64,000 nucleotides of DNA. Source: Holothuria leucospilota. Taxonomy: Eukaryota. Below the pieces are notes generated by a model that saw only the letters and a program-made list of their open reading frames with translations, made no database searches and was not told the DNA's origin. Below are positions 7,666 through 51,554 of this stretch, one piece after another. The stretch covers positions 6,720,493 through 6,784,492 of the forward strand of contig CM055976.1 of NCBI GenBank assembly GCA_029531755.1. The letters are read 5' to 3'. Position numbers and translations under genes: made by a program. Position 1 is the stretch's first letter. Each line of letters starts with the position of its first letter.

Positions 7666-8149
7666 GTACAGTGCAGTAAATGATAGTATAACACTGTAGA
7701 AAATGTTATTATAACTTTCCCTACATGTGTATAAAGCTTAATGAAAAGTTCCAAGGTCTATGTAAACCTTGCTGAACATTACTGTGTATGTGACCGATCA
7801 TTACTAATTTTATCTTATTGTAAGAAGTGGGATCATTACTGTATATTGCATAGTAACCACCTGTCAGGGAATGGGTTCCGCAATGTCATACCAACACTGT
7901 ACAGGGCTCGAAATAACCAGCATCACAGACAGCCATGGCTGTCAGGCCCTTACGAAGGCCGTGGTGCCCCTCAGTCAGTGTCCTATGAAATAACATAGAC
8001 CGACAGCCAATTTGCTCATTTTGGCTGTGCCCTTCTTCAAGCTTACTTGGAGCCCTGATTGTGGGTGGCATAGGTTATGGCATGATTTAAACTGACCAGA
8101 TGTTGCATTGTCTTGAATATTCACTAACAAACAACCAGTCTTAGGGCCA

Positions 8150-21085: not shown

Positions 21086-21450
21086 TAATAACACTTGTGC
21101 TACTCCGACTCCGAGCTGTTTTCTGATCTTGATGTCCCATCAGCACCTTCAAATTTAGCTTTTACTGATTTTCTTCCACAAAAGATCTAGCGAATATGGC
21201 ACCCACGATTTTTCGGCCGTTATACAACAACCTCCGTTACTACACCAACGTATTTTCATTAAAATAAACTGTTTATTCTGAATCCTAAGTGGCAAAAGGT
21301 ACGATGTACATCGTTCGACGATGACTCGCTTGTTTGTGCGCGTGCTGCAATTGGACCTAAAATGGCGCCCTGTGAGGTGTGTCAGCAATTGACCAATCAG
21401 AATTGGTCCCCCATTGGCCAAACTCTCTAAATATACGGCTCTGGTTCCTA

Positions 21451-22121
21451 CAAAGATATTATAAGCATAGATTCCAAACTCCTATACCTACACTGTTACG
21501 CTCAGTGACTCCTCATGGAGACGTATATATCGGGGCGGAAATGTAAATTTGACATACGCGTCGTTCTATTCCGTCATCTGCGTACAAAAATAAGAACGCG
21601 TCACAGAAAATTTCATTGTTAAAAGAGTTTAGCGTGCGTGCACGTTTACAACGCGTTCTATAGGCGCAGAATACATTTCTCTGTGTATTATCCGGAATAC
21701 TTGACGCACAGTTCTGCGCGCTCTGGAAACAAACGCGCTAGTTGCTTTCCCGTTATGAGCGCGTAAGTATATGAGCGCGCATATAAAAGTGCGTCACTTG
21801 AAGATACCATAGAAACTGACCAATGAATGTCGATGAACTTGAAAAACCAGTCATTGTGCGTTCATGTTCAAGTGTAAATACGTAGATGCCGCGTTGAAGA
21901 AATAAGTTATTCTTGTTTAAGTGGAATTTATTGAGGGGTAGTACTTCTCCAGTCAACAACATTCCGAAATAACAAGTATTAATACTTTTGTAAGCCATTC
22001 ATTTGCTTGTATGTTTTCAAAACGACTGAGCAGTGATCAGCACTTCCGCCCCGATATATTGGCCTCCATGGGGAGTCAACGCGCCATTTTAAGTTTGGAA
22101 TCTATGCTTGTAATATCTTTG
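21451..22121. mobile_element. nonautonomous hAT-like element, 671 bp, with a perfect 8-bp TSD GGTTCCTA
   Basis: The ~30-bp TIR CAAAGATATTA(T/C)AAGCATAGATTCCAAACT, which fits the hAT terminal consensus YARNG, is followed by a subterminal block of matching ends catggag.c..atatatcggggcggaa. The TSD sits at 21443-21450 and 22122-22129. A paralogue at 48905-49759 has a different 8-bp TSD. Confidence 0.6.
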
Positions 22122-22185
22122 GGTTCCTACTAGAGTCCTTTTATACGATATACTATATAGGAACCCTAGTTCTCACAAAGATATT

Positions 22186-25296: not shown

Positions 25297-25916
<620 letters not shown>

Positions 25917-26056
25917 CGCAGCAACTCCTGCATTTTTTTGACTTGTGGTAACCACTTAACACTGTCTGTTTTCCTAGCCGAGGTTTACCGTGCCCAATTT
26001 TATTGTGTATTTTTTAAATTGTACGTTTGGCCGTGTCAACGATCAGTTGCATTTTT

Positions 26057-26093
26057 GCCACCTGATGAAGGGTTTAAACCCGAAACGTCGTGG
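26057..26093 (+). ncRNA. minimal type-I hammerhead ribozyme (PLE-type) in the 3' region of the truncated PLE2 copy
   Basis: Helix I 5' strand ccac, then CUGAUGA (26062-68). Helix II is the GGGUUUAAACCC hairpin. GAAAC (26082-86) is followed by the palindromic dimerizing helix III ACGU and GUC|, with cleavage after 26089. Helix I 3' strand gugg pairs with ccac. Confidence 0.7.
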
Positions 26094-26174
26094 AATTTTT
26101 CACAAACTTTTAGCACTATTTACTACTTTATTTTTACCTACCTACTTCATAAGTGCTACGCAGTACTTTGACCC

Positions 26175-26323
<149 letters not shown>

Positions 26324-26383
26324 AGTATAAGCAAAAATAATAGCAAGAAACACAACTTTTGCTGCTCCACTATAATAAGTATA

Positions 26384-26423
26384 ATTCAATACGTTTCGGT
26401 CATTCGACCTTCCTCAGTTGAAC
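26384..26423 (-). ncRNA. hammerhead ribozyme of PLE1, minus-strand copy
   Basis: It is the reverse complement of the 30137-30176 motif (uugaac CUGAGGA a GGUCgaauGACC GAAAC GUA| uugaau). Confidence 0.65.
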
Positions 26424-26461
26424 AAACACAGTACACTGGTGATAAACACACAACAGAGGGC

Positions 26462-28477
26462 CTACGGGGCAAAATTGATACGCTTTTTGGAATTAAGTTC
26501 ATTTCTTTTGTTAAGGCCATAGGGGAAAATAGTACGCAATTGGGCAGTCCAGTAGATTTCACGGCTGAGGAGTTTCTTGTTGGTTTCTATGGTATCGGTG
26601 ATGCGTTCAATCGGGAGAAAAGCTAAGTCAGTTAATTCATGGGGAGTGTGGTTGAAATGGGTAGCTACAACGCAAGTTTTCTTATTAGTAAGCATGTGGG
26701 ATTTGTGATTACGAAATCTAACTTTAAATTCAGTAGAGGTAGAACCAATATACTGGACATTACATTTCGAACAAGTTAACAGATAAATAACATTCTTAGT
26801 GGTACAAGTGATGTACTGCTTAATGTAGTATGAGCGACCTGTGGCGGCACAGTAGAAAATACGAGAAGAAGATGAGTAGTTTTGACAGAGGTCGCATTTG
26901 TTGTTACAAGTAAAAAAACCGGGGGAGGTAAAATCAGGAAGGGGGCACTTATTCTTAAATTTTGAGGGCGCCACTAATTCTTTCAAATTTTTAGTCCTTC
27001 TGTAGGCAGGTATGATGGAACCCTCTGGGAAAATTTCTTTGAGGGTGGGAAGGGTGTAAAGCAACTTAATGTGTTTCTTAAGTATTTTGGAAATATTGGG
27101 GAGGATTGGGTTAAAGTCAAGTACAAGGGGATAAACCTTTTTTGTGATTTGGGATTTAGGTTTGAGTAAGTCATCCTGAGATAGACTAGTGGCTCGGTGA
27201 AATTGTTTATCAATAAGCTTAGGATTATAACCTTGCTGTAAAAGGTAATGTTTATATTCTTGACAACGTTTCATATAGGTATCATCCACGGAACATATTC
27301 TACGTAAACGTAATCCAACGCTATAAGGTATTGCATTTTTTGTGTGGATCGGATGAGAACTACTATGCGGGAGGTATAAATGACTGTCAGTAGGTTTAGA
27401 ATAAATATCAGTAGTTAAATATCCATCTTTTAAGTGAATAGAAACATCTAACACATTAAGTTTAGTGGTAGAATAGACCAATTCGAACTTAATAGTAGGA
27501 TACAAAGAATTAATGAAATTGGTAAATTCATGAAGTTTGGTTAAGCCATGCGTCCAAATATCGACAATATCATCCCTGTAACGCCACCAGTATCTTGGAG
27601 TGGCAGGACCTTGGGTCTTAGCCTTTTCGTCAATTATACCCATAGCTAGGTCTGCATAACTGCAGGCGTTTTTTGGGCCCATTGCAGTTCCATGTTTTTG
27701 GACATAGTTAACGTCATTAAATTGGCTGTTATTGGACGTTAAGCAAATGGTAACAGCTTCTACAATGCAGTCAGTGGAGGGAATTTGGTTTTCTCGGGTG
27801 TTAAGATATTTAGAAACAGCGGATATGCCTAATTTATTGTCGATATTGGGGAACATGGCCACAACGTCCCATGATACAAGAATGGTATTTGCAGGCAAGG
27901 GTCCTGAGTTATTGACTGCCTTAATTTTATTAAGGAGGTCAGAGGTATCCTTCAAGAATGATGGTAAGTTTTGGGCGAGTGGTTTGAGGTAAAATTCAGT
28001 GAAAGCAGATAGGCGTTCAATGGCAGTTCCGCAACAAGAGGTTATCAGCCTAACTGGATTACCGTCTTTGTGAGTTTTCACATTACCGTAAGCAACGCCT
28101 GGTTTTGGTACCACTTCGGTTATCCAATTAAAAATTTCTTCACTTATTTGTTGTCTCCTTAACCACTTATAAGCCCAATGGGTCACCTCCTGGTGGAATT
28201 TGTTAGAAGGATCTTCTGTCATAATGTTGTAATGCAAGGGGTTGGTGAGTTGTTGTTCCATCTTAGTTTGGTAGTCATTTTTGTCCATGATGACAAATCG
28301 GGAGCCCTTATCTTGGATTCTAATAACTCTGTCATCCTCTTTAAGCTTATGAATTGCCTTTCTCTCCTCTCTGCTAAGGTTATCTTTTGGGGCTCTTGTG
28401 TTTTCGGGATTTAGAATGTCAGCACGTAAGTTCTTAAGAAAGACTTCAACTTCAGGGATAGAAGATTTAGGAGGCAT
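26462..28477 (-). CDS. PLE1 reverse transcriptase plus GIY-YIG endonuclease ORF (671 aa), possibly N-terminally incomplete
   Basis: Taken from the ORF track. The YxDD-type RT core (YRDDIVDIW) and the GIY-YIG motifs were identified by eye. Confidence 0.75.
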
Positions 28478-28605
28478 CCAAGTACACTCACAAAGACGGT
28501 AATCCAGTTAGGCTGATAACCTCTTGTTGCGGAACTGCCATTGAACGCCTATCTGCTTTCACTGAATTTTACCTCAAACCACTCGCCCAAAACTTACCAT
28601 CATTC

Positions 28606-30098
28606 TTGAAGGATACCTCTGACCTCCTTAATAAAATTAAGGCAGTCAATAACTCAGGACCCTTGCCTGCAAATACCATTCTTGTATCATGGGACGTTGT
28701 GGCCATGTTCCCCAATATCGACAATAAATTAGGCATATCCGCTGTTTCTAAATATCTTAACACCCGAGAAAACCAAATTCCCTCCACTGACTGCATTGTA
28801 GAAGCTGTTACCATTTGCTTAACGTCCAATAACAGCCAATTTAATGACGTTAACTATGTCCAAAAACATGGAACTGCAATGGGCCCAAAAAACGCCTGCA
28901 GTTATGCAGACCTAGCTATGGGTATAATTGACGAAAAGGCTAAGACCCAAGGTCCTGCCACTCCAAGATACTGGTGGCGTTACAGGGATGATATTGTCGA
29001 TATTTGGACGCATGGCTTAACCAAACTTCATGAATTTACCAATTTCATTAATTCTTTGTATCCTACTATTAAGTTCGAATTGGTCTATTCTACCACTAAA
29101 CTTAATGTGTTAGATGTTTCTATTCACTTAAAAGATGGATATTTAACTACTGATATTTATTCTAAACCTACTGACAGTCATTTATACCTCCCGCATAGTA
29201 GTTCTCATCCGATCCACACAAAAAATGCAATACCTTATAGCGTTGGATTACGTTTACGTAGAATATGTTCCGTGGATGATACCTATATGAAACGTTGTCA
29301 AGAATATAAACATTACCTTTTACAGCAAGGTTATAATCCTAAGCTTATTGATAAACAATTTCACCGAGCCACTAGTCTATCTCAGGATGACTTAATCAAA
29401 CCTAAATCCCAAATCACAAAAAGGTTTATCCCCTTGTACTTGACTTTAACCCAATCCTCCCCAATATTTCCAAAATACTTAAGAAACACATTAAGTTGCT
29501 TTACACCCTTCCCACCCTCAAAGAAATTTTCCCAGAGGGTTCCATCATACCTGCCTACAGAAGGACTAAAAATTTGAAAGAATTAGTGGCGCCCTCAAAA
29601 TTTAAGAATAAGTGCCCCCTTCCTGATTTTACCTCCCCCGGTTTTTTTACTTGTAACAACAAATGCGACCTCTGTCAAAACTACTCATCTTCTTCTCGTA
29701 TTTTCTACTGTGCCGCCACAGGTCGCTCATACTACATTAAGCAGTACATCACTTGTACCACTAAGAATGTTATTTATCTGTTAACTTGTTCGAAATGTAA
29801 TGTCCAGTATATTGGTTCTACCTCTACTGAATTTAAAGTTAGATTTCGTAATCACAAATCCCACATGCTTACTAATAAGAAAACTTGCGTTGTAGCTACC
29901 CATTTCAACCACACTCCCCATGAATTAACTGACTTAGCTTTTCTCCCGATTGAACGCATCACCGATACCATAGAAACCAACAAGAAACTCCTCAGCCGTG
30001 AAATCTACTGGACTGCCCAATTGCGTACTATTTTCCCCTATGGCCTTAACAAAAGAAATGAACTTAATTCCAAAAAGCGTATCAATTTTGCCCCGTAG
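28606..30098 (+). pseudogene. frameshifted PLE1 RT-EN ORF, the plus-strand copy
   Basis: Two overlapping ORFs in different frames have amino-acid sequences identical to the minus-strand ORF except at the frameshift region. Confidence 0.7.
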
Positions 30099-30136
30099 GC
30101 CCTCTGTTGTGTGTTTATCACCAGTGTACTGTGTTT

Positions 30137-30176
30137 GTTCAACTGAGGAAGGTCGAATGACCGAAACGTATTGAAT
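30137..30176 (+). ncRNA. minimal type-I hammerhead ribozyme of PLE1, with CUGAGGA and a GUA cleavage triplet
   Basis: Helix I 5' strand guucaa, then CUGAGGA (30143-49). Helix II is GGUC-gaau-GACC. GAAAC (30163-67) is followed by the palindromic ACGU and A17, with cleavage after 30170. Helix I 3' strand uugaau gives six base pairs including one G-U. Confidence 0.65.
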
Positions 30177-30330
30177 TATACTTATTATAGTGGAGCAGCA
30201 AAAGTTGTGTTTCTTGCTATTATTTTTGCTTATACTTTCTATATTATCATGAGAGAAACACCCTGGCATCCTATTTGGATCCTTTTGTTGGGAGTACATT
30301 GTTTGGGTATGTTGAACTTTCTTATTCTCG

Positions 30331-30362
<32 letters not shown>

Positions 30363-30367
<5 letters not shown>

Positions 30368-32294
30368 TGCCGATTTAGAACGTCTCCTTCCTCCCAAAGT
30401 AACTCCCTTTCGTAACATTTCTTTGGACGAGCAGAAGGCCATTCTGTCCCTCAAGAAGAACAAGAATTTGATTATTAAGCCTGCTGACAAGGGCGGTGCC
30501 ACTGTTGTTTGGCGTCGAGATCTTTATGTTTCTGAAGCTGAGAAACAACTCTCAGACCAAACAGCATACACCGAACTGCCGATAGACCCCACTTCTGAAA
30601 TCCAAACCTTGGTCAAGAAAACCTTAGCTACCCTTGTAAGTCAAAAACATCTTCCTGAATCGGCTAAAGCCCTTCTGCACCCTTGCCCACAAATCTCCAA
30701 TTTCTATCTACTGCCCAAAATTCACAAGGCCAATAATCCTGGTCGTCCCATTGTGTCTTCCCACAGCTGCCCCACGGTTCTGATTTCACAGTACGTAGAT
30801 TCTGTACTTTCCCCATTAGTTTCAACCCTACCTTCGTTTATCCAGGATACTCCTCACTTCCTTAGGTTAATTCAAAATTTTGAGTTTCCTGAGAATCCCA
30901 GTGAACGTACTTTATTCACCATGGATGTCAGCAGCCTCTATACTTCAATCCCCCATCACGCTGCTTTAGCAGCCATACGCCATTACCTTGATCAACGCCA
31001 GGACCCTAGCATCCCTACCACCACCTTTCTTCGCTTAACTGAACTAGTCCTGACACAAAATTGCTTTCAGTTCAATGGTCGTTTTTTCCGCCAAATTAAA
31101 GGAGTAGCTATGGGCACTAAACTGGGACCTTCTGTGGCCTGCCTCACCATGGGCCACTTTGAGGAGCAGTTGTTCTCACGATACACCGGGATCAAGCCCA
31201 TACTTTATAAAAGGTACATTGACGATATTGTTGGGGTCGCAGTGGGTCCTCGAAACGATTTGGAAAAGTTCATTAACTTTGCTGAAACGTTCTGCCCGTT
31301 TTTGAAATTCACTCACTGTATTTCCAACTCCTCAGTAGTGTTTTTAGACACGGAACTATCCATCTCCGACCGTCAAATCAAGTCCAATCTCCACTTTAAG
31401 CCTACTGACTCTCACAACTACCTCATGTACCCTTCCAACCACCCCAGATCTTGTACCAATTCGATTCCTTTCTCACAACTTTTACGGGCCAGACGGATTT
31501 GTTCCGACGACCAGGATTTCGCTAAAGTTTCCAAACAGATTATTTCTTTCTTTGAACAACGCCAGTATCCACAAAGAGTGCTCTCTAATGCCCTGAAACG
31601 CATACAAGGAATTGATAGAGCCTCTGCCCTTGCCCCCAAAACTGACCATACACCCACCAGACGTATCCCGTTGGTCCTATCCTTTCACCCATCTGTAACC
31701 CCCATTGTACGTGCCATTTACAGGAATGTAGAGACCCTCCGTCATGACCCATCCACCCGTGACCATTTCCCTGATCCCCCCATCACGGCATTCAGAATTG
31801 AAAAGAACATATCTAAGCACTTGGTCCGTGCCTCTCAACCTCAAGCAGTAGTGCCTGACACCCCAGGAACTTTTCCTTGCAACCGTGGGAGATGCAATAC
31901 TTGCCCGGTGGTCAGTTATGACATAAACCTTTCCATTGTAGGTCCCAACAACAACCGGTTTAACGTTCATCAGCATTTTACCTGTACTTCAGCCAATGTT
32001 GTTTACGTTCTCGTATGTAAACGCTGTAATATACTGTACGTGGGAGAAACAAAACGTCGTCTTGCTGACCGAGTCACCGAGCACCTGAGATCAATCAAAC
32101 AGAACCTCCCAGGGTTCCCGGTAGCCACCCACTTCAATCCCCCGTCAACATGCTCGATCCGTGACTTGATGGTTTCGGCGGCCATCTCGTGTCGAGGTTC
32201 CGATCATGACCGCCTAGCTGCCGAAAACCGCCTAATCATGAAACTTGGAACCCTGTCCCCACATGGTCTGAACGTTAGACTTGAACTGTTATAA
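30363..32294 (+). CDS. PLE2 reverse transcriptase plus GIY-YIG endonuclease ORF, about 643 aa after the (TA)n, with no Met start in the element
   Basis: The ORF-track ORF is trimmed to the part downstream of (TA)n. The region from KPADKGG onward is homologous to the Penelope/Poseidon RT, as recognised from memory. Confidence 0.7.
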
Positions 32295-32439
32295 CGCAGC
32301 AATTCCTGCATTATTTTGACTTGTGGTAACCACTTAACACTGTCTGTTTTCCTAGCCGAGGTTTACCGTGCCCAATTTTATTGTGTATTTTTTTTTTTAA
32401 ATTGTACGTTTGGCCGTGTCAACGATCAGTTGCATTTTT

Positions 32440-32476
32440 GCCACCTGATGAAGGGTTTAAACCCGAAACGTCGTGG
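32440..32476 (+). ncRNA. minimal type-I hammerhead ribozyme in the PLE2 3' UTR
   Basis: ccac CUGAUGA (32445-51) ag GGGUUUAAACCC GAAAC (32465-69) GUC| gugg, identical to the 26057-26093 copy. Confidence 0.7.
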
Positions 32477-32519
32477 AATTTTTCACAAACTTTTAGCACT
32501 ATTTACTACTTCATTTTTA

Positions 32520-32522
<3 letters not shown>

Positions 32523-32612
<90 letters not shown>
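32523..32612. repeat. (TA)45 microsatellite at the 3' end of PLE2; further (TA)n blocks lie at 30338-30362, 32750-32772, 32965-33036 and 33187-33290
   Basis: Read directly. Confidence 0.95.
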
Positions 32613-32616
<4 letters not shown>

Positions 32617-32760
32617 CGAGAATAAGAAAGTTCAACATACCCAAACAATGTACTCCCAACAAAAGGATCCAAATAGGATGCCAGGGTGTTTCTCTCATGA
32701 TAATATAGAAAGTATAAGCAATAAGTATTGCTATTATTTTTGCTTATACTTTCTATATAT
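32613..32760 (-). repeat. inverted copy of the ~120-bp terminal segment of PLE1 (matching 30225-30345)
   Basis: The reverse complement of 32613-32760 matches ...ctttctatattatcatgagagaaacaccctggcatcctatttggatccttttgttgggagtacattgtttgggtatgttgaactttcttattctcgtt. Confidence 0.7.
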
Positions 32761-32963
32761 ATATATATATATATGTATAGGCCTTCTCACTGGTGTTCGG
32801 TTTCAACGAAAGGGTCACCTACCGCACCCTCATTTTGCCCCAATAGTGATTTGCATAACGCCGATTATGAAAAGAATATTGTCACGATTCTAAATGTCGG
32901 GGAGAGAAATTCATACCTCCGTTAGTAGGGGTGAGGATGGAAAAATCAAGCAGGATAGCTATT

Positions 32964-34425: not shown

Positions 34426-35074
34426 ACCTTGCCTGGCACAGCGAGGAAAAATACAGGCAGGCTATACGAACATGCACAGCCGCAGTGTGGCCGCCAATTT
34501 CACGCAAGTTGACTGCTTGTGTGTTACTGCCCTATAGCTACATTCTTCGTGCGTCAAGCACATCGTAGCCTATCATTCGTCGTTGATTAGTGCCAGGGCT
34601 GTAACCGAGTCCACCTAATCCGAGTCCGAGCCAATTCCGATTCCAGTGATCCCAATTCCGAGTCCGGTACCCCGCGAGTCCAAGCCGAGTCGGAGTCCAG
34701 AGGACCCAAGTCCGAGCCGAGTCCGAATCCATCCCCATAAGTAAATGTGCTGTAAAATTCTTGGAAACTGGCAGCGCCGTATGTGAATACAGGAGCATGA
34801 GTGCGGGTACGGGTACCAAGTCATGGGTGTGGGTACGGATATGGGGGCTGGTACAGGTACGGGTAACAGGTCATGAGCCCGGACACGGGTACTGGTCATG
34901 AGTACGTGGTTTTGAGTTTGGGTATGGTATGTGTGCCAGGTCGTGAGAAGCTGGTACAGGTGCAAGTCCCGGGTCACGAACTTGAGCACAGACCGGGGGT
35001 ACCACAACATGAGTATGGATACCAGGTCATGATCAAGGGACTTTCATACCCAACCCCTACTCCAAATCCAGATA

Positions 35075-35600
35075 TGGGTTGATATCTGGATATATCTGGT
35101 TAAATACAGCCTTTATATGGCCATATCAAGCCCGATATAACTTGATACAATGCAATTCCAGATATGCAAATAAAGTTTTATATGGCCATATCAAGCCAGA
35201 TATAATTTGATAAAATGCCAACCCATATATGCAAATAAAGTTTTATATGGCCATATCAAGCCACATATAAATTGATACAATGCAATTCCAGATATACAAA
35301 TAAAGTTTTATATGGCCATATCAAGCCAGATATAATGGATGAAATGCCTTTCCAGATATGTAAATAAAGTTTTATATGGCCATATCAAGCCAGATATAAA
35401 CTGAAGAATTGTCTGTCCAGATATGTAAATACAGTTTTATATGGCCATATCAAGCCATATATAAACTGATACAACGCAATTCCAGATATGCAAATAAAGT
35501 TTTATATGGTCATATAAAGCCAGATGTAATGGATGAAATGCCTTTCCAGATATGTAAATAAAGTTTTATATGCATGGCCATATCAAGCCAGATATAAGTT
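35075..35600. repeat. satellite family 1: unit of ~57-60 bp (ccagatatgcaaataaagttttatatggccatatcaagccagatataa.ttgat.aaatgc), about 9 copies; a second array lies at 36425-36900
   Basis: Tandem periodicity is read directly. Both arrays are followed by a similar ~440-bp tail (tagatatgcaaatgagcattttgttagtttgttttatt...). This implies a ~1.3-kb segmental duplication covering 35070-36050 and 36420-37330. Confidence 0.8.
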
Positions 35601-36212
35601 GATATGCTAGATATGCAAATGAGCATTTTGTTAGTTTGTTTTATTTTTTATTTGATTTGATTCTTGGATTATACTTGTTACAAATTAAGACATGTTTTGG
35701 ATACAGCATCACCTTCCCAGACATTGCAGTTATTTAGTGGCCACACTTTTTTAATACTGCAGTATACTAAGTGAACTTATGCAAATGATTTCCATATTTG
35801 GGCAGAGCTTGTATCTAAACCTACATTTTTCATGATTTAGGAAGTTGAAAGTAAAATATGCACTTTGCAGTAAACAAAATTTAGAGTCAAATACTTAATA
35901 AAGTTTAAAATAAGAAGCCCATATCACTGTGATTACATAAAATAGGAAATTTCAAGGCGTTTTTCTGTTCACTGTTATGAAATAAGTTGAATTTATGCAC
36001 CTAACTCAATTCAACTCAATTCTTACATAAAATTCTTTATGGAGCTTTTAAACATTTTCTGCATACTAACCTGAGTATTAAAAAAGACTCTTTTGTTCCC
36101 TGTTGTATGGTGTGTATAGTTTGTTTGGCATTGTGTTTGTGATCAGACGGATTTTGTTTGGGTTTGGGGTTCTTTAGTTTCTCAGTGCCTGTTTCTACGT
36201 ACTTAAAAAGCT

Positions 36213-36412
36213 CCACTTACCTGGCCAGGAGTATCCGTGATCACGACGCGGAGCTCCCAGTGGGACCTGTTCTATTCAGCCAGTCTAGAACGGGACCACT
36301 GTCGGGTGGTTTAGTTTGTCCCTTGGGGACGTTGTTACTCCTTCGGGAGCAGAACTCCTTCCGGAGTATTGTTTGGTTTTCGCCCCTGGCTCTTCGCCAG
36401 AGAGTTGAGGGG
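36213..36412 (+). ncRNA. U1 snRNA-like sequence, copy A, ~200 nt
   Basis: The 5' end is ACUUACCUGGC, the 5' splice-site pairing sequence. The stem-loop I loop GUGAUCACGACG matches the U1-70K binding loop consensus GAUCACGAAGG. There are UUCGG tetraloop hairpins. An Sm-like site AUUGUUUGG is followed by the terminal stem-loop CCCCUGGCUCUUCGCCAGAGAGUUGAGGGG. Confidence 0.6.
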
Positions 36413-37377
36413 AATTTCCTTACTCCAAATCCAGAAATGGATTGATATCTGGATATATCTGGCTAAATACAGTCTTTATATAGCCATATCAAGCCAGATA
36501 TACAGCCAGACTTAGATGCCTTGATACATTATATCAAGTTTTATATGGCCATATCAAGCCAGATATAACTTGATGAAATGCCAGTCCAGATATGTAAATA
36601 CAGTTTTATATGGCCATATCAAGCCAGATATAACTTGATGAAATGCCAATCCAGATATGTAAATACAGTTTTATATGACCATATCAAGCCAGATATAACT
36701 TGATACAATGCAATTCCAGATATGCAAATAAAGTTTTATATGGCCATATCAAGCCAGATATAACTTGATGAAATGCCAGTCCAGATATGTTAATAAAGTT
36801 TTATATGGCCATATCAAGCCAGATATAACTTGATACAATGCAATTCCAGATATGTAAATAAAGTTTTATATGGCCATATCAAGCCAGATATAACTTGATA
36901 TGCTAGATATGCAAATGAGCATTTTGTTAGTTTGTTTTATTATTGATTTGATTTGATTCTTGGATTATGCTTGTTACAAACTAAGACATGTTTTGGATAC
37001 AGCATCACATTCCCAGACATTGCAGTTATTTAGTGGCCACACTTTTGTTAATAGTGTTAATAGTGCACAGTGTACTAAGTGAACTTAGGTAAATGATTTG
37101 CATATTTGGGCGGAGCTTGTATCTAAACCTACATTTTTCATGATTTAGGAAGTTGAAAGTAAAATATGCACTACGCAGTAAACAAAATTTAGAGTCAAAT
37201 ACGTAATAAAGTTTAAAATAAGAAGCCCATATCACTGTGATTACATAAAAGAGGAAATTTCAAGGCATTTTTCTGTTCACTGTTATGAAATAAGTTGAAT
37301 TTATGTACTTAAGTCAATTCAGCCTAATACGTACGTTAAATTCTAATTCATGGAGCACTTAAACATTGTTTGCTGGT

Positions 37378-38280: not shown

Positions 38281-38329
38281 TTGGAAAAAAAAAAGGTGTT
38301 CAAAGTCTCCATGAGGAGAGTGGACTATA

Positions 38330-39300
38330 AGTCCTAACTATGATTCATAACTAGAGCAGATAAGGTCCGGATACAATTTTATCTGTGCCATATATAGGCT
38401 TGATCCAGATAGAACTTTATCTGGCCATATATGATTTAGATCTGGTTCTGGTTTAGATTTGTGTTATATCTGCCTAACTTTTTATTTGATCTGATATAAA
38501 TTCCATATCTGGTGCAGATATGGGCCATATATGGAAATACATTCTGCTTATATAAGGACCATATCTGGTCCAGATAAAATTTTATCTGTTCCATATAAAG
38601 ACTTGATCCAGATAAAACTTTATCTGGCCATATATGGCTTAGATCTGGTTCTGGCGTAGATCTGGGTTATATCTGCCCAATTTTTTATCTGGCCCAGATA
38701 TAAATCCCATATCTGCAGCAGATATGGGCCAGATATGAAATCCATATCTGGCCCATATCTGTATTTCGAGTAAGGGTTTAGAAAAAGGGGAAAAAAGGTG
38801 TTCAGTGTCTCCAAGAGGAGTGTGGACTATAAGTCCTAACTATGATTCATAACTACAGCTGATATGGTCTGGATACAATTTTATCTGTGCCATATAAAGA
38901 CTTGATACAGATAGAACTTTATCTGGCCATATATGGTTTAGATCTGGTTCTGGTTTAGATCTGTGTTATATCTACCCAAGTTTTCATCTGATCTGATAGT
39001 AAATTCCATATCTGGTGCAGATATGGGCCATATATGGAAATATATTCTGCTCATATAAGGACCATATCTGGTCCAGATAAAATTTTATCTGTTCCATATA
39101 AAGACTTGATGCAGATAAAACTTTATCTGGCCATATGTGGCTAAGATCTGGTTCTGGCATAGATCTGGGTTATATCTGCCCAATTTTTTATCTGGCCCAG
39201 ATGTAAATCCTATATCTGCAGCAGATATGGGCCAGATATGAAATCCATATCTGGTCCATATATGGAATTTCATATCTGGCCCATATCTGGATTTCGAGTA
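38330..39300. repeat. satellite family 2: two tandem ~490-bp higher-order units built from ccatatctgg and ccagatat palindromic cores
   Basis: Units at 38318-38810 and 38810-39300 are collinear and about 90% identical. Each begins with aaaaaaggtgttca, the same motif that flanks the U1-like 3' ends. Confidence 0.75.
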
Positions 39301-48500: not shown

Positions 48501-48904
48501 GTAGTAGATTCGAAAGGGGTTGTGGGACTTAAGAACTGTCACTTCGAAGAGTGAATTTAAAGTCAGAAAGTGGACAATTTTTCAATGTAAATGAGGAAAA
48601 AATAAAGTCAGTTCAAAAATACGCATTTTTTTTCGGCGTGCTTCGCGCGCACCTTTTACTTACGCTCATTCATTATTCCTTCACGCGTAGGTAAAAAGAC
48701 AAACGATCATATTGTGATACTTCTGGCTTGTTTATCCTTGCACATTCTGTGTCATTTAATAATGGTGAATGAGCATTCTATTGTCCACAAATTAGAACAA
48801 ATCCCTGATCTTTTCGGGGCTGCGTCCCAGTTCTTGCCTAGACTTTTCCCCTAGACCCAACCAGGGCCTGTTTGGGGCCCCTTGGCTTGTCCCCTTGGTG
48901 AGAA

Positions 48905-49759
48905 CAAAGATATTATAAGCATAGATTCCAAACTCCTATACCTACACTGTTACGCTCAGTGACTCCTCATGGAGACGTATATATCGGGGCGGAAGTGTTT
49001 ATTTGACATGCGCGTCGTTCTGTTCCGCGATCTGCGTTCAAAAATAAGAACGCGTTACAGAAAATTCTATTGTTCAAAAAGGTTAGCGCGGGTGCACTTT
49101 TACAGCGCGTTCTATACGCGCAGAATACATTTCTCTGTGTATTATCCGGAATACTTGACGCACAGTTCTGCTCGCTCGGGAAACAAACGCGCTAGTTGCT
49201 TTCCCGTTGTGATTGCGTAAGTAGCTGAACGCGCATATAAAAGTGCGTCACTTGAAGATACCATAGCAGTGCCGGATCCAGAACCTAATTCTAGGGGGGG
49301 CAAAGCATGATCCAGAACCTAATTCTAGGGGGGGCAAAGCATGCGCAAGAAGTATGGATCTTTGGGGCTGATTTTAATTTTTCCCTTGCTCATAAAATTC
49401 TAGGGGGGGCAATTGCCCCCTTTGCCCCCCCTTGGATCCGGCACTGCATAGAAACTGACCAATGAATGTCCATGAACTTGCAAAACCAGTCATTGTGCGT
49501 TCATGTTCAAGTGTAAATACGTGGAATACCGCGTTGAAGAAATCAGTTATTGTTGTTCAAGTGGAATTTATTGAGGCGTAGTAGTTCTTCAGTCAACAAC
49601 ATTCCGAAATAACAAGTACTAACTTTTGTAAAACGTTCATTTGCCTGTTTGTTTTCAAAACGACTGAACAGTGATCAGCACTTCCGCCCCAATATATTGG
49701 CCTCCATGAGGAGTCAACGCGCCATTTTAAGTTTGGAATCTATGCTTGTAATATCTTTG
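48905..49759. mobile_element. second copy of the hAT-like MITE family seen at 21451, with a perfect 8-bp TSD GGTGAGAA and a nested 180-bp MITE
   Basis: It has the same TIRs and internal sequence as 21451-22121. The TSD sits at 48897-48904 and 49760-49767. Confidence 0.6.
49267..49446. mobile_element. 180-bp MITE with a 13-bp TIR CAGTGCCGGATCC and a 5-bp TSD CATAG, nested in the hAT-like MITE
   Basis: The TIRs are cagtgccggatcc on the left and ggatccggcactg on the right. CATAG sits at 49262-49266 and 49447-49451. The uninterrupted paralogous site at 21806-21818 reads gaagataccatagaaactgacc. There is an internal 36-bp direct duplication. Confidence 0.55.
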
Positions 49760-51554
49760 GGTGAGAAAGCTTATTGCGCCCTCTCTATGTGCTGCGCGCG
49801 AGTAGATTATGACCTTCAAAACGGCCCGCCAGAGAAAAAAGGTTCCCCACCCGTTTTAGGTTGTCTAACTCACAGGCACTCGGTACTAGTATAGGCTGGT
49901 CAAGAGTGTAGGCTATGCGGTTACTGTATACCCTTGGCCAGCCTATACTAGTATCGAGCGCTAGTAAGTGTCTGCCAAGAGTGTACGCTATCTAATACCA
50001 CCAGCCTGCTAGTACCGAGAGCCTGTGGTCAAAATATCTTAAAGTTTCAATCAAGTTAAGCCAATGGCTAAGAAAAAAGACAATCAGAGACAGCAGTCAT
50101 TAACAAATTTAGTAGTCACGTTTCTCCTGCGCAGTGGTGTCGCCAGATTTTTCGAAATGGGGGGGGGGGGACTCGGTGGCAAAATGTTCCAATGAAGGGG
50201 CACATCGATATGAAGAACTGATAACCTCGCTAAAGAAGTCGTGCTGGCACAAAGTGATATCATGAAAGCGTCTTGGCGCAGGGACCTTTCAAAGGGCCCC
50301 TGGTGGGGTCCAAAGACAATCCCCAGTGCGGTTTCAAAAGGGAATGTCCCCAGAGGCTCTGGGTTATCAAATTATTTGTAAATGGCATTGCATGGACACT
50401 AAGCAGACCACAGAAATAAAAATCACAATTTTACCCAACTCGGACTGACAATATACTGATTCGGGTGTAAGGGTGTCAGCTTGTCCGTCGGATTTAGTTA
50501 TGGTTTGCATTGGGCTAAATGAAACAACCCATGCTCCTCAGCAGGAATAAATGTCGATACAACTACCTTCCAGTCATGTCACTTAGGCCTACTTTTGTGC
50601 GCGCTTCGCTCGTGCACAAAGCCGAGGTAGTCTCAATGGGCATCAGCCACCAATTTTTCTCGGTTTACTACAGATTAAAATGCAGGAAAATGTTCATTCT
50701 ACAATTTTAAGACACCCCAAAGCCAAAGCCTACTACATTACATACAAGACTTCTTTTTTTCAAATTTCCCAGGCGAGGCCTTGTATCCGCCGCTGTGCAT
50801 GCACTTTCGATGCGCTAATACAGTGATTCTCAAACGCGGCCCCTGGACACTGTCGGTGCGGCCCCTGAATTGATTTTACGTTTTGGAAAAGAATCATATT
50901 CGACAAGTAAAAAACCTGGCAAATTTGAAATAAGGAGCAATAATCCACGCTGACATGCATGTAAAATCGTTTATTTTGAAGTCACTACTTGACTCATTTT
51001 AAATTTGTTCTCCAGAAGTGGTGCTAGATTGCTCAGGGCCGGTGCACACTGCACCGACCCGACTGCGATCAGATGCAACAGAACTCGACTTCTCGTCGAG
51101 TTGCATGCAGTTGTGACCAGTTGCGTCGGGTTGCAGTCGGATCTAGCCGCACGTACACTATACACGAACCCGACTGCCACCTGCAAACTCATGATTGTTC
51201 GATCTCGCGTCTCGCAAAAAATGGCAGGTATCACAAACAAATCGTTGCGTATACGTCGGCGTTTATTGTTGCTTTAGACTTTGACAGTGAAATTAAGCCG
51301 AAAAGAGTGGTAGGGCAGTATAAAGAGGCGTCATGAAGATATGGTACTGACTGTCAAAGCTCCAGTAATTTCATCTCTTGTTCTTCTGTCCACATGAGAG
51401 CTGCCATTTTGTTTTCTGCTCTGTCACTTGATTCACAATGTTTTTTCATTGACTATACACTAAAATCGCGTCGCTGTCGGGTCGGTAACAGCCGCACAGT
51501 GTCACGACCCGGCTCATCTACGAAGCAACCCCCCCCCCCCACACACACACACAC

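Follow-up and report, generated by a model that had tools for sequence, protein, structure and literature searches.

An inverted, 5′-truncated copy lying beside the 5′ end of another copy, together with a tail at one end only, is typical of PLEs (PMC8557442; PMC3846280). The locus described here shares with such inverted pseudo-LTR PLEs (Evgen'ev & Arkhipova 2005; Arkhipova 2006; PMC3846280; Craig et al. 2021, PMC8557442) the inverted 5′-truncated copy set against the 5′ end of a longer one, an optional one-ended tail, an AT-rich microsatellite target and frequent 5′ truncation. It departs from them in four respects: in place of a short pLTR there is an inverted arm of 1760 nt that spans most of the ORF; 5′ truncation affects the longer copy too, which is not preceded by a direct pLTR; the tail measures about 88 nt, as against the 30–40 nt usually quoted; and the junction contains no palindrome. 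With the Neptune clade it has in common a C-terminal GIY-YIG endonuclease with CCHH, a CX2-5CxxC linker upstream of it, the DKG motif, insertion into (TA)n and a minimal hammerhead near the 3′ end, although the nearest proteins are just 62–68% identical at best. The predicted hammerheads resemble the minimal (dimeric) ones of metazoan PLEs (Cervera & de la Pena 2014, PMC4209133) in their CUGANGA and GAAA cores, the G10.1–C11.1 pair, the palindromic 15.2–16.2 (ACGU), the lack of helix III and the occurrence of paired copies on opposite strands, whereas the predicted helix II has 4 bp here and 7–8 bp in schistosome PLEs, and no Rfam model reports the motif. As to integration, in vitro work with purified PAc PLE protein has shown cleavage and extension of both strands of the target, with initiation at two internal sites, the interval between which corresponds to the tail (PMC11167929).

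The window, a stretch of 64,000 nt from contig CM055976.1 of Holothuria leucospilota, contains two families of such elements, PLE-A and PLE-B (Table 1). In the assembled sequence two PLE-A copies abut head to head with a spacer of zero at 28485|28486, a position corrected from the 28486/28487 given in a preliminary description that had rightly located the inverted pair. A repeat search delimits the inverted arms as 26316–28075 and 28486–30244, in two 100% blocks with a 1-nt offset, and BLAST aligns them over 1760 nt with 1 mismatch and 1 gap, that is, at 99.9% identity where about 98% had been estimated. The pair is far beyond chance. The arms differ by C/A at 27166 versus 29395 and by A6 versus A5 at 27143 versus 29417, and by nothing else; the latter indel causes the frameshift of the plus copy, so that the A-run frameshift noticed earlier is real while the 'few substitutions' reduce to one. 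The plus copy, which had been placed at about codon 134, begins at codon T135 of the 671-aa ORF. It does continue through the 3′ end, as had been proposed, but it is extended past 30244 by the tail. The description of the junction as a zero-spacer palindrome holds only in that the copies touch: the arms lie 410 nt apart, the stretch 28380–28620, read directly, is not symmetric about the junction and holds no palindrome across it, and no microhomology was found at 28485|28486. The outer flanks are unlike each other, with (TA)n beyond the long arm and tail plus (TA)n beyond the short one. Both outer ends coincide with two alternative 3′ termini of PLE-A, each of which recurs once more in the miniature pair at 32703–32758.

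Table 1. Positions of the PLE-derived features and (TA)n tracts in the window
Feature	Position	Strand	Remarks
PLE-B 5′-truncated copy	25412..26174	+	97.4% identical to PLE-B long copy; own 36-nt tail at 26139-26174, then (TA)n
(TA)n tract	26175..26320		beside tail-less 3′ end of long arm; target microsatellite
PLE-A long arm	26316..28485	-	2170 nt; 5′-truncated within ORF; tail-less 3′ end straight into (TA)n
Minimal hammerhead core (predicted), long-arm 3′ UTR	26393..26417	-	CUGAGGA-A-GGUC..GACC-GAAAC; pattern search
Open 671-aa ORF of long arm	26462..28477	-	translation; RT motifs, linker, CCHH, GIY-YIG; lacks conserved N-terminal region of the family
Long-arm-only segment	28076..28485	-	410 nt, element nt 1-410; lies between the two inverted arms
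PLE-A short arm	28486..30244	+	element nt 411-2170; begins at codon T135; frameshift in A5/A6 run at 29417
Minimal hammerhead core (predicted), short arm	30143..30167	+	same core as long arm
Tail X	30245..30332	+	88 nt; on short arm only; then (TA)n
(TA)n tract	30332..30366		directly past short-arm tail
PLE-B long copy	30367..32525	+	between the two PLE-A pairs; (TA)n on either side
Tail copy X′	32615..32702	-	100% identical to X, opposite orientation
Miniature head-to-head pair of PLE-A 3′ tips	32703..32758		19-nt minus tip + 6-nt filler + 31-nt plus tip

The protein encoded by the long arm has the organization of EN+ PLEs, a single ORF with RT followed by a C-terminal GIY-YIG domain. The latter lies at residues 562–649 (E 3.7e-5, above the Pfam cut-off); the RT motifs DKG and YRDD can be read in the PLE-A translation (26 residues), and the RVT_1 profile is significant for PLE-B only. 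Between RT and endonuclease, PLE-A carries a CX3CxxC linker (14 residues read), whose C524, C528 and C531 are invariant in homologues, and PLE-B the sequence CNRGRCNTC, that is, CX4CxxC. The CCHH motif of PLE-A was read directly (18 residues and, further on, RNHKSH), with C569, C572 and H591 invariant in 12 homologues. Other traits of EN+ PLEs found here are a predicted hammerhead motif in the 3′ region and, in the window as in its relatives, a complex tandem or inverted insertion structure that is often 5′-truncated and may bear a tail on one side. The CX2-5CxxC linker and the preference for (TA)n microsatellites are those of Neptune. Judged by these motifs, PLE-A and PLE-B are both Neptune-like EN+ PLEs, although the linker is also present in Nematis, and placement there or in another linker-bearing lineage is conceivable; they are separate families, with 30% protein identity over 638 aa. 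The Hydra clade was considered as well, given the aquatic-invertebrate host, the (TA)n targeting and the short length. It was rejected: members of that clade have no CCHH, have DKT in place of DKG and a linker of the form CxCX5C (PMC8557442), whereas PLE-A has CCHH, DKG (IQDKGS) and CX3CxxC. Exact matching against protein records found neither the PLE-A ORF nor two Holothuria PLE-B proteins.

The 671-aa ORF, previously regarded as complete, is uninterrupted, yet it lacks a conserved N-terminus: in the alignment, homologues bear a conserved extension beyond its start. The 8 nt upstream of the ATG encode T-W in frame, and this W is invariant in the homologues covering the position. Both PLE-A copies are therefore 5′-truncated, and the ORF is not to be scored as an intact element.

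At the 3′ side, (TA)n follows every PLE-A and PLE-B end in the window as well as those of eight related pairs. Tail X is kept, at about 85–100 nt, across related families that share only about 60% protein identity, and its GGATCCT and CGTT.GG motifs are invariant. The possibility that X represents a host flank or the terminal repeat of a MITE was rejected, since a motif-bearing tail ends one arm in every related pair examined. No support was obtained for the tail being the 5′ end of a full-length unit: the one in locus L008 is part of a miniature copy lying upstream, and in L002 and L006 the long copies begin with other sequence. The hammerhead core pattern is present in all four PLE copies (five hits in the window against 0.5 expected), and the predicted stems I and II covary across seven families. 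Rfam returned no hammerhead match in 24–34 kb (E<=1) or in 30095–30340 (E<=10), and MFE folding of the 3′ UTR and tail was uninformative (z-scores −1.1 to +0.1). The only Rfam hits were low-complexity ones, in which (TA)n matched miRNA and other models.

The immediate neighbourhood repeats the same theme on a smaller scale. In the miniature pair, 2.4 kb from the large one, the minus tip is joined to X′ and the plus tip enters (TA)n, so that one tip alone is tailed, as in the large pair. Within 8 kb, copies of PLE-A and PLE-B lie nested, and PLE-B is framed by X and X′ in a wider mirror-image layout.

Nine related loci from six ENA samples, belonging to other assemblies, were retrieved via homologous proteins. 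Spacer-less head-to-head pairs occur in 7/9 of them, eight pairs in total (two in L001 and one each in L002, L004, L006, L007, L008 and L009b), with arms of 620–3124 nt that are 95.3–99.96% identical. The tail count leaves out the second pair of L001 (about 620 nt, 95.3%), a member of a different family; in the other pairs the identity of the arms is 98.5–99.96%. The early reading of the locus as a PLE inverted-tandem arrangement is borne out by this recurrence, by the hammerhead motif and by the (TA)n flanks. The tail count covers eight large pairs, the one in the window and seven in relatives, together with the miniature pair, and exactly one arm is tailed in all nine. If tails assorted independently, such an outcome would have a probability of at most 0.5^9 = 0.002. 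The tail is on the shorter arm in four pairs (those of the window, L001 and L007, and the miniature pair) and on the longer arm in five. A possible exception is a perfect 120-nt palindrome made up of two tails, at 7786–7905 of L009. Across the related families the inner ends vary widely in position, from upstream of aa 2 to aa 636. Four of them (window, L002, P0041 and P0052) fall near aa 134–151, a cluster that we do not regard as a demonstrated hotspot because the proteins concerned were selected by length.

We consider it likely that the pair is a genuine insertion product of an EN+ Neptune-like PLE in (TA)n, most probably generated in one retrotransposition event. The GIY-YIG endonuclease of the element would cleave both strands of the (TA)n target, and each freed 3′-OH would prime reverse transcription of the element RNA, so that two antisense cDNAs would extend from opposite sides of the break. 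Both would halt before the 5′ end of the RNA, after 2170 and 1760 nt, and their 3′ ends would be fused without homology, by template jump or end joining, producing the spacer-less junction. The arm with the 88-nt tail would result from initiation at the extreme 3′ end of a template produced by read-through, the tail-less arm from initiation at an internal site. As (TA)n reveals no legible target-site duplication, the single event is unproven, and the high identity of the arms could alternatively stem from gene conversion between inverted repeats. A partial parallel is offered by twin priming of L1 (Ostertag & Kazazian 2001), in which a second primer reportedly anneals internally on the same RNA, resulting in an inversion with little or no duplication. 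In both cases the second target strand would also act as primer, and an inverted segment is joined to a 5′-truncated copy without long homology; in contrast to L1, both arms here begin at the 3′ end of the element and 1760 nt are duplicated.

Alternatively, a cDNA or antisense template might fold back and copy itself (Arkhipova et al. 2013, PMC3846280). Such self-priming has been proposed for PLE inverted repeats since their junctions often hold palindromes (PMC3846280), and it would explain why the arms are nearly identical and why no spacer is present. We nevertheless find it unlikely here. A fold-back copy cannot hold 3′ sequence that is missing from its template, whereas it is precisely the short arm that is tailed in four cases (window, L001, L007 and miniature pair). 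Moreover, the junction is spanned by no palindrome, and pairing at the site where the fold would have to occur is possible for only two of the four terminal bases.

It is also conceivable that two independent PLE-A insertions came to lie head to head by chance. (TA)n draws repeated PLE insertions, as illustrated by the nesting of PLE-A and PLE-B, and recognition of the element's own tail sequence has been reported for PLE endonucleases (PMC11167929). This would require, however, that the second insertion struck the exact 5′ end of the first, where there is neither a spacer nor (TA)n. Besides, the arms differ at just 2/1760 positions, and the same spacer-less arrangement recurs in the related loci, with one tail each wherever the tail was examined. 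Coincidence of this kind is very improbable.

Slightly less credible still is a fold-back, chimeric-read or assembly artefact, in which case the inverted copy would be absent from the genome. Missed adapters or strand-switch chimeras can yield inverted duplications, the region is rich in (TA)n and hard to assemble, and the pair is known here from assembled sequence alone. The preliminary description had called the structure exactly what a fold-back long read produces. Reverse-complement symmetry starting from the junction itself, as expected of a fold-back, is not seen: the 410 nt lying left of the junction are without a counterpart on its right side, and this unique sequence between the arms excludes a simple fold-back read. 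Furthermore, the arms end exactly at two natural 3′ termini of the element, with unlike flanks outside, and are distinguished by a base substitution. The miniature pair shows the same asymmetry, the related loci share the architecture in other assemblies, and the head-to-head arrangement is a published hallmark of PLEs (PMC8557442; PMC3846280). Least probable of all is an inverted duplication at the DNA level after insertion, for instance through replication template switching or a hairpin-capped break at a (TA)n cruciform: long (TA)n tracts readily form cruciforms and X and X′ do mirror each other around PLE-B, but such a process would neither stop at the element termini nor generate the tail asymmetry, and it would have copied flanking DNA too, while the outer flanks are not mirrored and no inverted duplication of non-element DNA adjoins the arms.

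Within the two-strand priming that we favour, the distribution of tails calls for comment. As the tail is on the shorter arm in some pairs and on the longer arm in others, a simple model of a leading and a trailing enzyme on one RNA does not fit. The PAc enzyme uses similar reverse-transcription start sites on both strands in vitro (PMC11167929), and a strict one-tail rule is thus not predicted by published data. It is tempting to speculate, albeit with considerable reservation, that the rule, which holds whichever arm is longer, reflects a deterministic asymmetry of a dimeric PLE ribonucleoprotein and not chance. If so, the cut (TA)n ends would prime at two fixed sites of the template, a terminal one downstream of the tail and an internal one upstream of it, and inverted pairs would document both initiation sites of a single event. 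The palindromic GGAUCC in the tail, together with a hammerhead acting only as a dimer, could then unite two templates or sites.

The inverted head-to-head arrangement as such is an already known hallmark of PLEs, and in this sense the finding is an ordinary one. In annotation, this 4-kb inverted structure can be treated as a usual PLE insertion scar, with no need for a misassembly flag. For PLE biology the gain is modest: it consists of clean, young pairs in which the 3′ ends, the truncation points and the junction are legible to the base. Any model of PLE integration will have to accommodate the conserved motifs of the tail and the regular presence of one tail per pair, both of which agree with the two start sites and the cleavage of both strands that were described in vitro in 2024.

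The preliminary description reported an inverted pair of PLE-A (there PLE1), a Penelope-like element family, with a spacer-less junction, and this was borne out by three comparisons. A repeat search of the 24–33 kb interval returned two adjoining inverted blocks (27134–28075/28486–29427 and 26316–27142/29418–30244), both reported as 100% complementary and mutually offset by one base, and a BLAST comparison of the minus-strand copy with the window aligned element nt 411–2170 to 28486–30244, with a single mismatch and a single gap in 1760 nt. Base-by-base comparison showed that the arms differ solely by C (27166) versus A (29395) and by an A6/A5 run at 27143/29417, the latter causing the frameshift in the plus copy. 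The arms are therefore 99.9% identical; the proposed frameshift stands, but the figure of about 98% and the 'few substitutions' do not. The copies abut at 28485/28486, one base from the junction first proposed (28486/28487), with zero extra bases and zero microhomology, and the plus copy starts at codon T135 of the minus-copy ORF, close to the estimated codon 134. To the left of the junction, 410 nt (28076–28485, element nt 1–410) have no counterpart on the right. Accordingly, the junction is not the centre of a palindrome, contrary to what had been claimed.

The 3′ end of the long arm (...GCTTATACTTTCTATAT) passes directly into (TA)n. In the short arm, 88 further nt, termed X, lie between the identical terminus and (TA)n. 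X′, an inverted and 100% identical copy of X, is joined to a 19-nt minus-strand PLE-A tip, a 6-nt filler and a 31-nt plus-strand tip, again followed by (TA)n; this miniature head-to-head pair repeats the one-tail asymmetry of the large pair. It is the mirror image of the latter, beyond the second family, PLE-B; an abortive insertion is a possible origin, as is a palindrome from which the centre was lost. With X and X′ in opposing orientation on either side of (TA)n–PLE-B–(TA)n, the two PLE-A pairs flank PLE-B as a larger mirror-image structure. Related elements have a homologous stretch of 80–100 nt, with GGATCCT and CGTT.GG invariant, after the 3′ end of one arm, which rules out that X is host DNA. 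X corresponds to the published PLE 'tail', reported at one end only of an insertion (PMC8557442; PMC3846280).

Features of the window, and PLE-A-like head-to-head pairs at related loci (L numbers) in other assemblies
Feature	Position	Strand	Arm (nt)	Identity (%)	Loop (nt)	Remark
PLE-A long arm	26316–28485	-	2170			no tail
PLE-A ORF	26462–28477	-				671 aa, uninterrupted; translation of minus copy
PLE-A short arm	28486–30244	+	1760			tailed
X	30245–30332	+				tail of short arm
Miniature pair of PLE-A 3′ tips	32615–32776					includes X′ tail and (TA)n
X′	32615–32702	-				tail of miniature pair
PLE-B 5′-truncated copy	25412–26174	+
PLE-B long copy	30367–32525	+
L001			734	98.5	2332	tail on short arm
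L002			1931	99.74	1538	tail on long arm
L004			2475	99.96	351	tail on long arm
L006			3124	99.94	308	tail on long arm
L007			1474	99.86	856	tail on short arm
L008			3051	99.9	646	tail on long arm
L009b (one pair at L009)			1150	98.5	1653	tail on long arm

Nine related loci were reached via homologous proteins, on long ENA contigs from six samples. Head-to-head pairs of the same design, eight in total, are present in seven of them, bearing out the earlier statement that inverted-tandem arrangements are a known PLE hallmark; L003 and L005 are solo copies. A second pair at L001 belongs to another family (~620 nt, 95.3%). All seven PLE-A-like pairs have (TA)n at both outer ends and a tail on exactly one arm. 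Counting these together with the large and miniature pairs of the window (both tailed on the short arm), and leaving out the second L001 pair, exactly one arm is tailed in 9/9 pairs, an outcome with a probability of at most 0.5^9 = 0.002 if tails assorted independently. One locus may break this rule: at L009 (7786–7905), a long PLE copy is immediately preceded by a perfect palindrome of 120 nt, in which two tail-like sequences (GGATCC motif) flank a TA-rich centre. At the L008 head-to-head junction, a tandem 137-nt fragment (7874–8008), comprising the terminal 45 nt of the unit and the tail, immediately precedes the long copy's 5′ UTR, a classic pseudo-LTR plus inverted partner. The short arms have inner ends anywhere from upstream of aa 2 to aa 636, so that the junction has no fixed position. 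The starts of four independent copies, truncated and belonging to different families (the proteins P0041 and P0052, L002 at 8740 and the window at 28486), fall within ~17 codons (KTHK...CCGTAIE; aa 134–151 of PLE-A); this clustering could reflect a preferred RT stop/jump site or a selection effect of protein choice.

A single retrotransposition event, with target-primed reverse transcription (TPRT) from both strands of a cut (TA)n, would explain the pair most economically; of this event we infer the steps after cleavage. Both strands would prime reverse transcription in one event, and two cDNAs would converge, each halting before the 5′ end of the RNA, to be joined without homology; one initiation would keep the tail, the other beginning at an internal site. 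Such two-strand priming is consistent with data on a purified PLE protein, which, unlike R2 and L1, cleaves and extends both strands and has two start sites, the interval between them being the tail (PMC11167929). Self-priming, by which the inverted arm would arise as a snap-back copy (PMC3846280), is disfavoured because such a copy cannot bear a tail missing from its template arm, as found in the window, L001, L007 and the miniature pair; a junction palindrome is also absent. It is very improbable that the pair stems from a fold-back read, as had been feared: there is no symmetry about the junction, the arms stop at the natural termini of the element and differ by one substitution, the outer flanks are unlike each other, and the architecture recurs 2.4 kb away and in other assemblies. 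We thus regard the head-to-head structure as real, with very slight residual doubt. Neither two independent PLE insertions nor a DNA-level inverted duplication explains zero spacer, exact termini and the tail rule jointly.

[quoted passage not shown] Judged from these motifs, PLE-A appears to be a Neptune/Nematis-type EN+ PLE. The combination, including CCHH and the linker, rules out the Hydra clade, which is without CCHH and has DKT and CxCX5C (PMC8557442). The closest database relatives are just 62–68% identical, the named ones being coral proteins, and no Holothuria protein was among the best 120 matches; PLE-A may have few copies, lack annotation or be a recent acquisition. A conserved N-terminal region (...LLxKGPxFCPxPKDVNW...DDLDxFExRxR...NW/MPPKS...) is common to the longer homologues, and the window ORF begins only at the MPPKS methionine, which is internal in them. 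Immediately 5′ of the ATG of this ORF, 8 nt (GTACTTGG) still encode T-W in frame, the W being invariant in homologues. The long arm is therefore 5′-truncated within the coding region, and the ORF, previously taken as complete, is open but lacks this N-terminal region. Apparently full-length relatives measure ~3.4–3.5 kb, and both PLE-A arms are dead-on-arrival copies.

A CUGANGA...GAAAC core lies in the 3′ UTR of all four PLE-A and PLE-B copies; the window holds five matches to this pattern (0.5 expected), four of them inside PLE copies. Aligned with five related families, the core displays an extra A after position 9, a G10.1–C11.1 pair, a GUH cleavage triplet and invariant ACGU at 15.1–16.1, helix III being absent. 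Stems I and II show covariation, 78.6% of their cells being paired, with a score of 0.595 versus 0.236 in shuffles, 0/500 of which reach 0.595, and at most 0.19 with partners slid. Rfam models did not report the hammerhead motif. Metazoan PLEs are known to have minimal, dimer-dependent hammerheads with these very traits (PMC4209133), and the core is a putative ribozyme.

PLE-B, with ~30% protein identity to PLE-A, repeats the one-tail pattern in a direct arrangement: the tail, 36 nt long (26139–26174), follows the truncated upstream copy, and the downstream copy has none. At 97.4% mutual identity, the two copies predate the PLE-A arms. Even the 'long' copy is truncated at its 5′ end (641 aa versus 730–879 aa in homologues), its apparent 707-aa ORF crossing (TA)n by chance (IYIYIY stretch). 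Several annotated 'hypothetical' proteins of Holothuria leucospilota share 94–99% identity with the PLE-B ORF (30369–32294), so the window probably comes from a sea cucumber of this genus. Among these hits, a gene model annotated as GH3.8-like shares 80% identity with PLE-B across 35% of the query, so that PLE-derived sequence may be included in that model. The 25.3–33.3 kb region, which contains 11 of the window's 12 (TA)n tracts of at least 10 units, is a nest of 5′-truncated PLE insertions. Elsewhere, tandem or dispersed direct repeats of ~130–480 nt (35055–37367 and 38289–39271; 84–94% identity) are unrelated to PLEs, and a dispersed direct repeat of ~680 nt (21450–22124 and 48904–49762; 92–93% identity, 27 kb apart) probably represents a further transposable element.

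The head-to-head pair is a genuine and well-preserved case of a known hallmark of Penelope-like elements; only two points, the regular presence of one tail per pair and the conserved motifs of the tail, go slightly past published statements (PMC8557442; PMC3846280; PMC11167929; PMC4209133).
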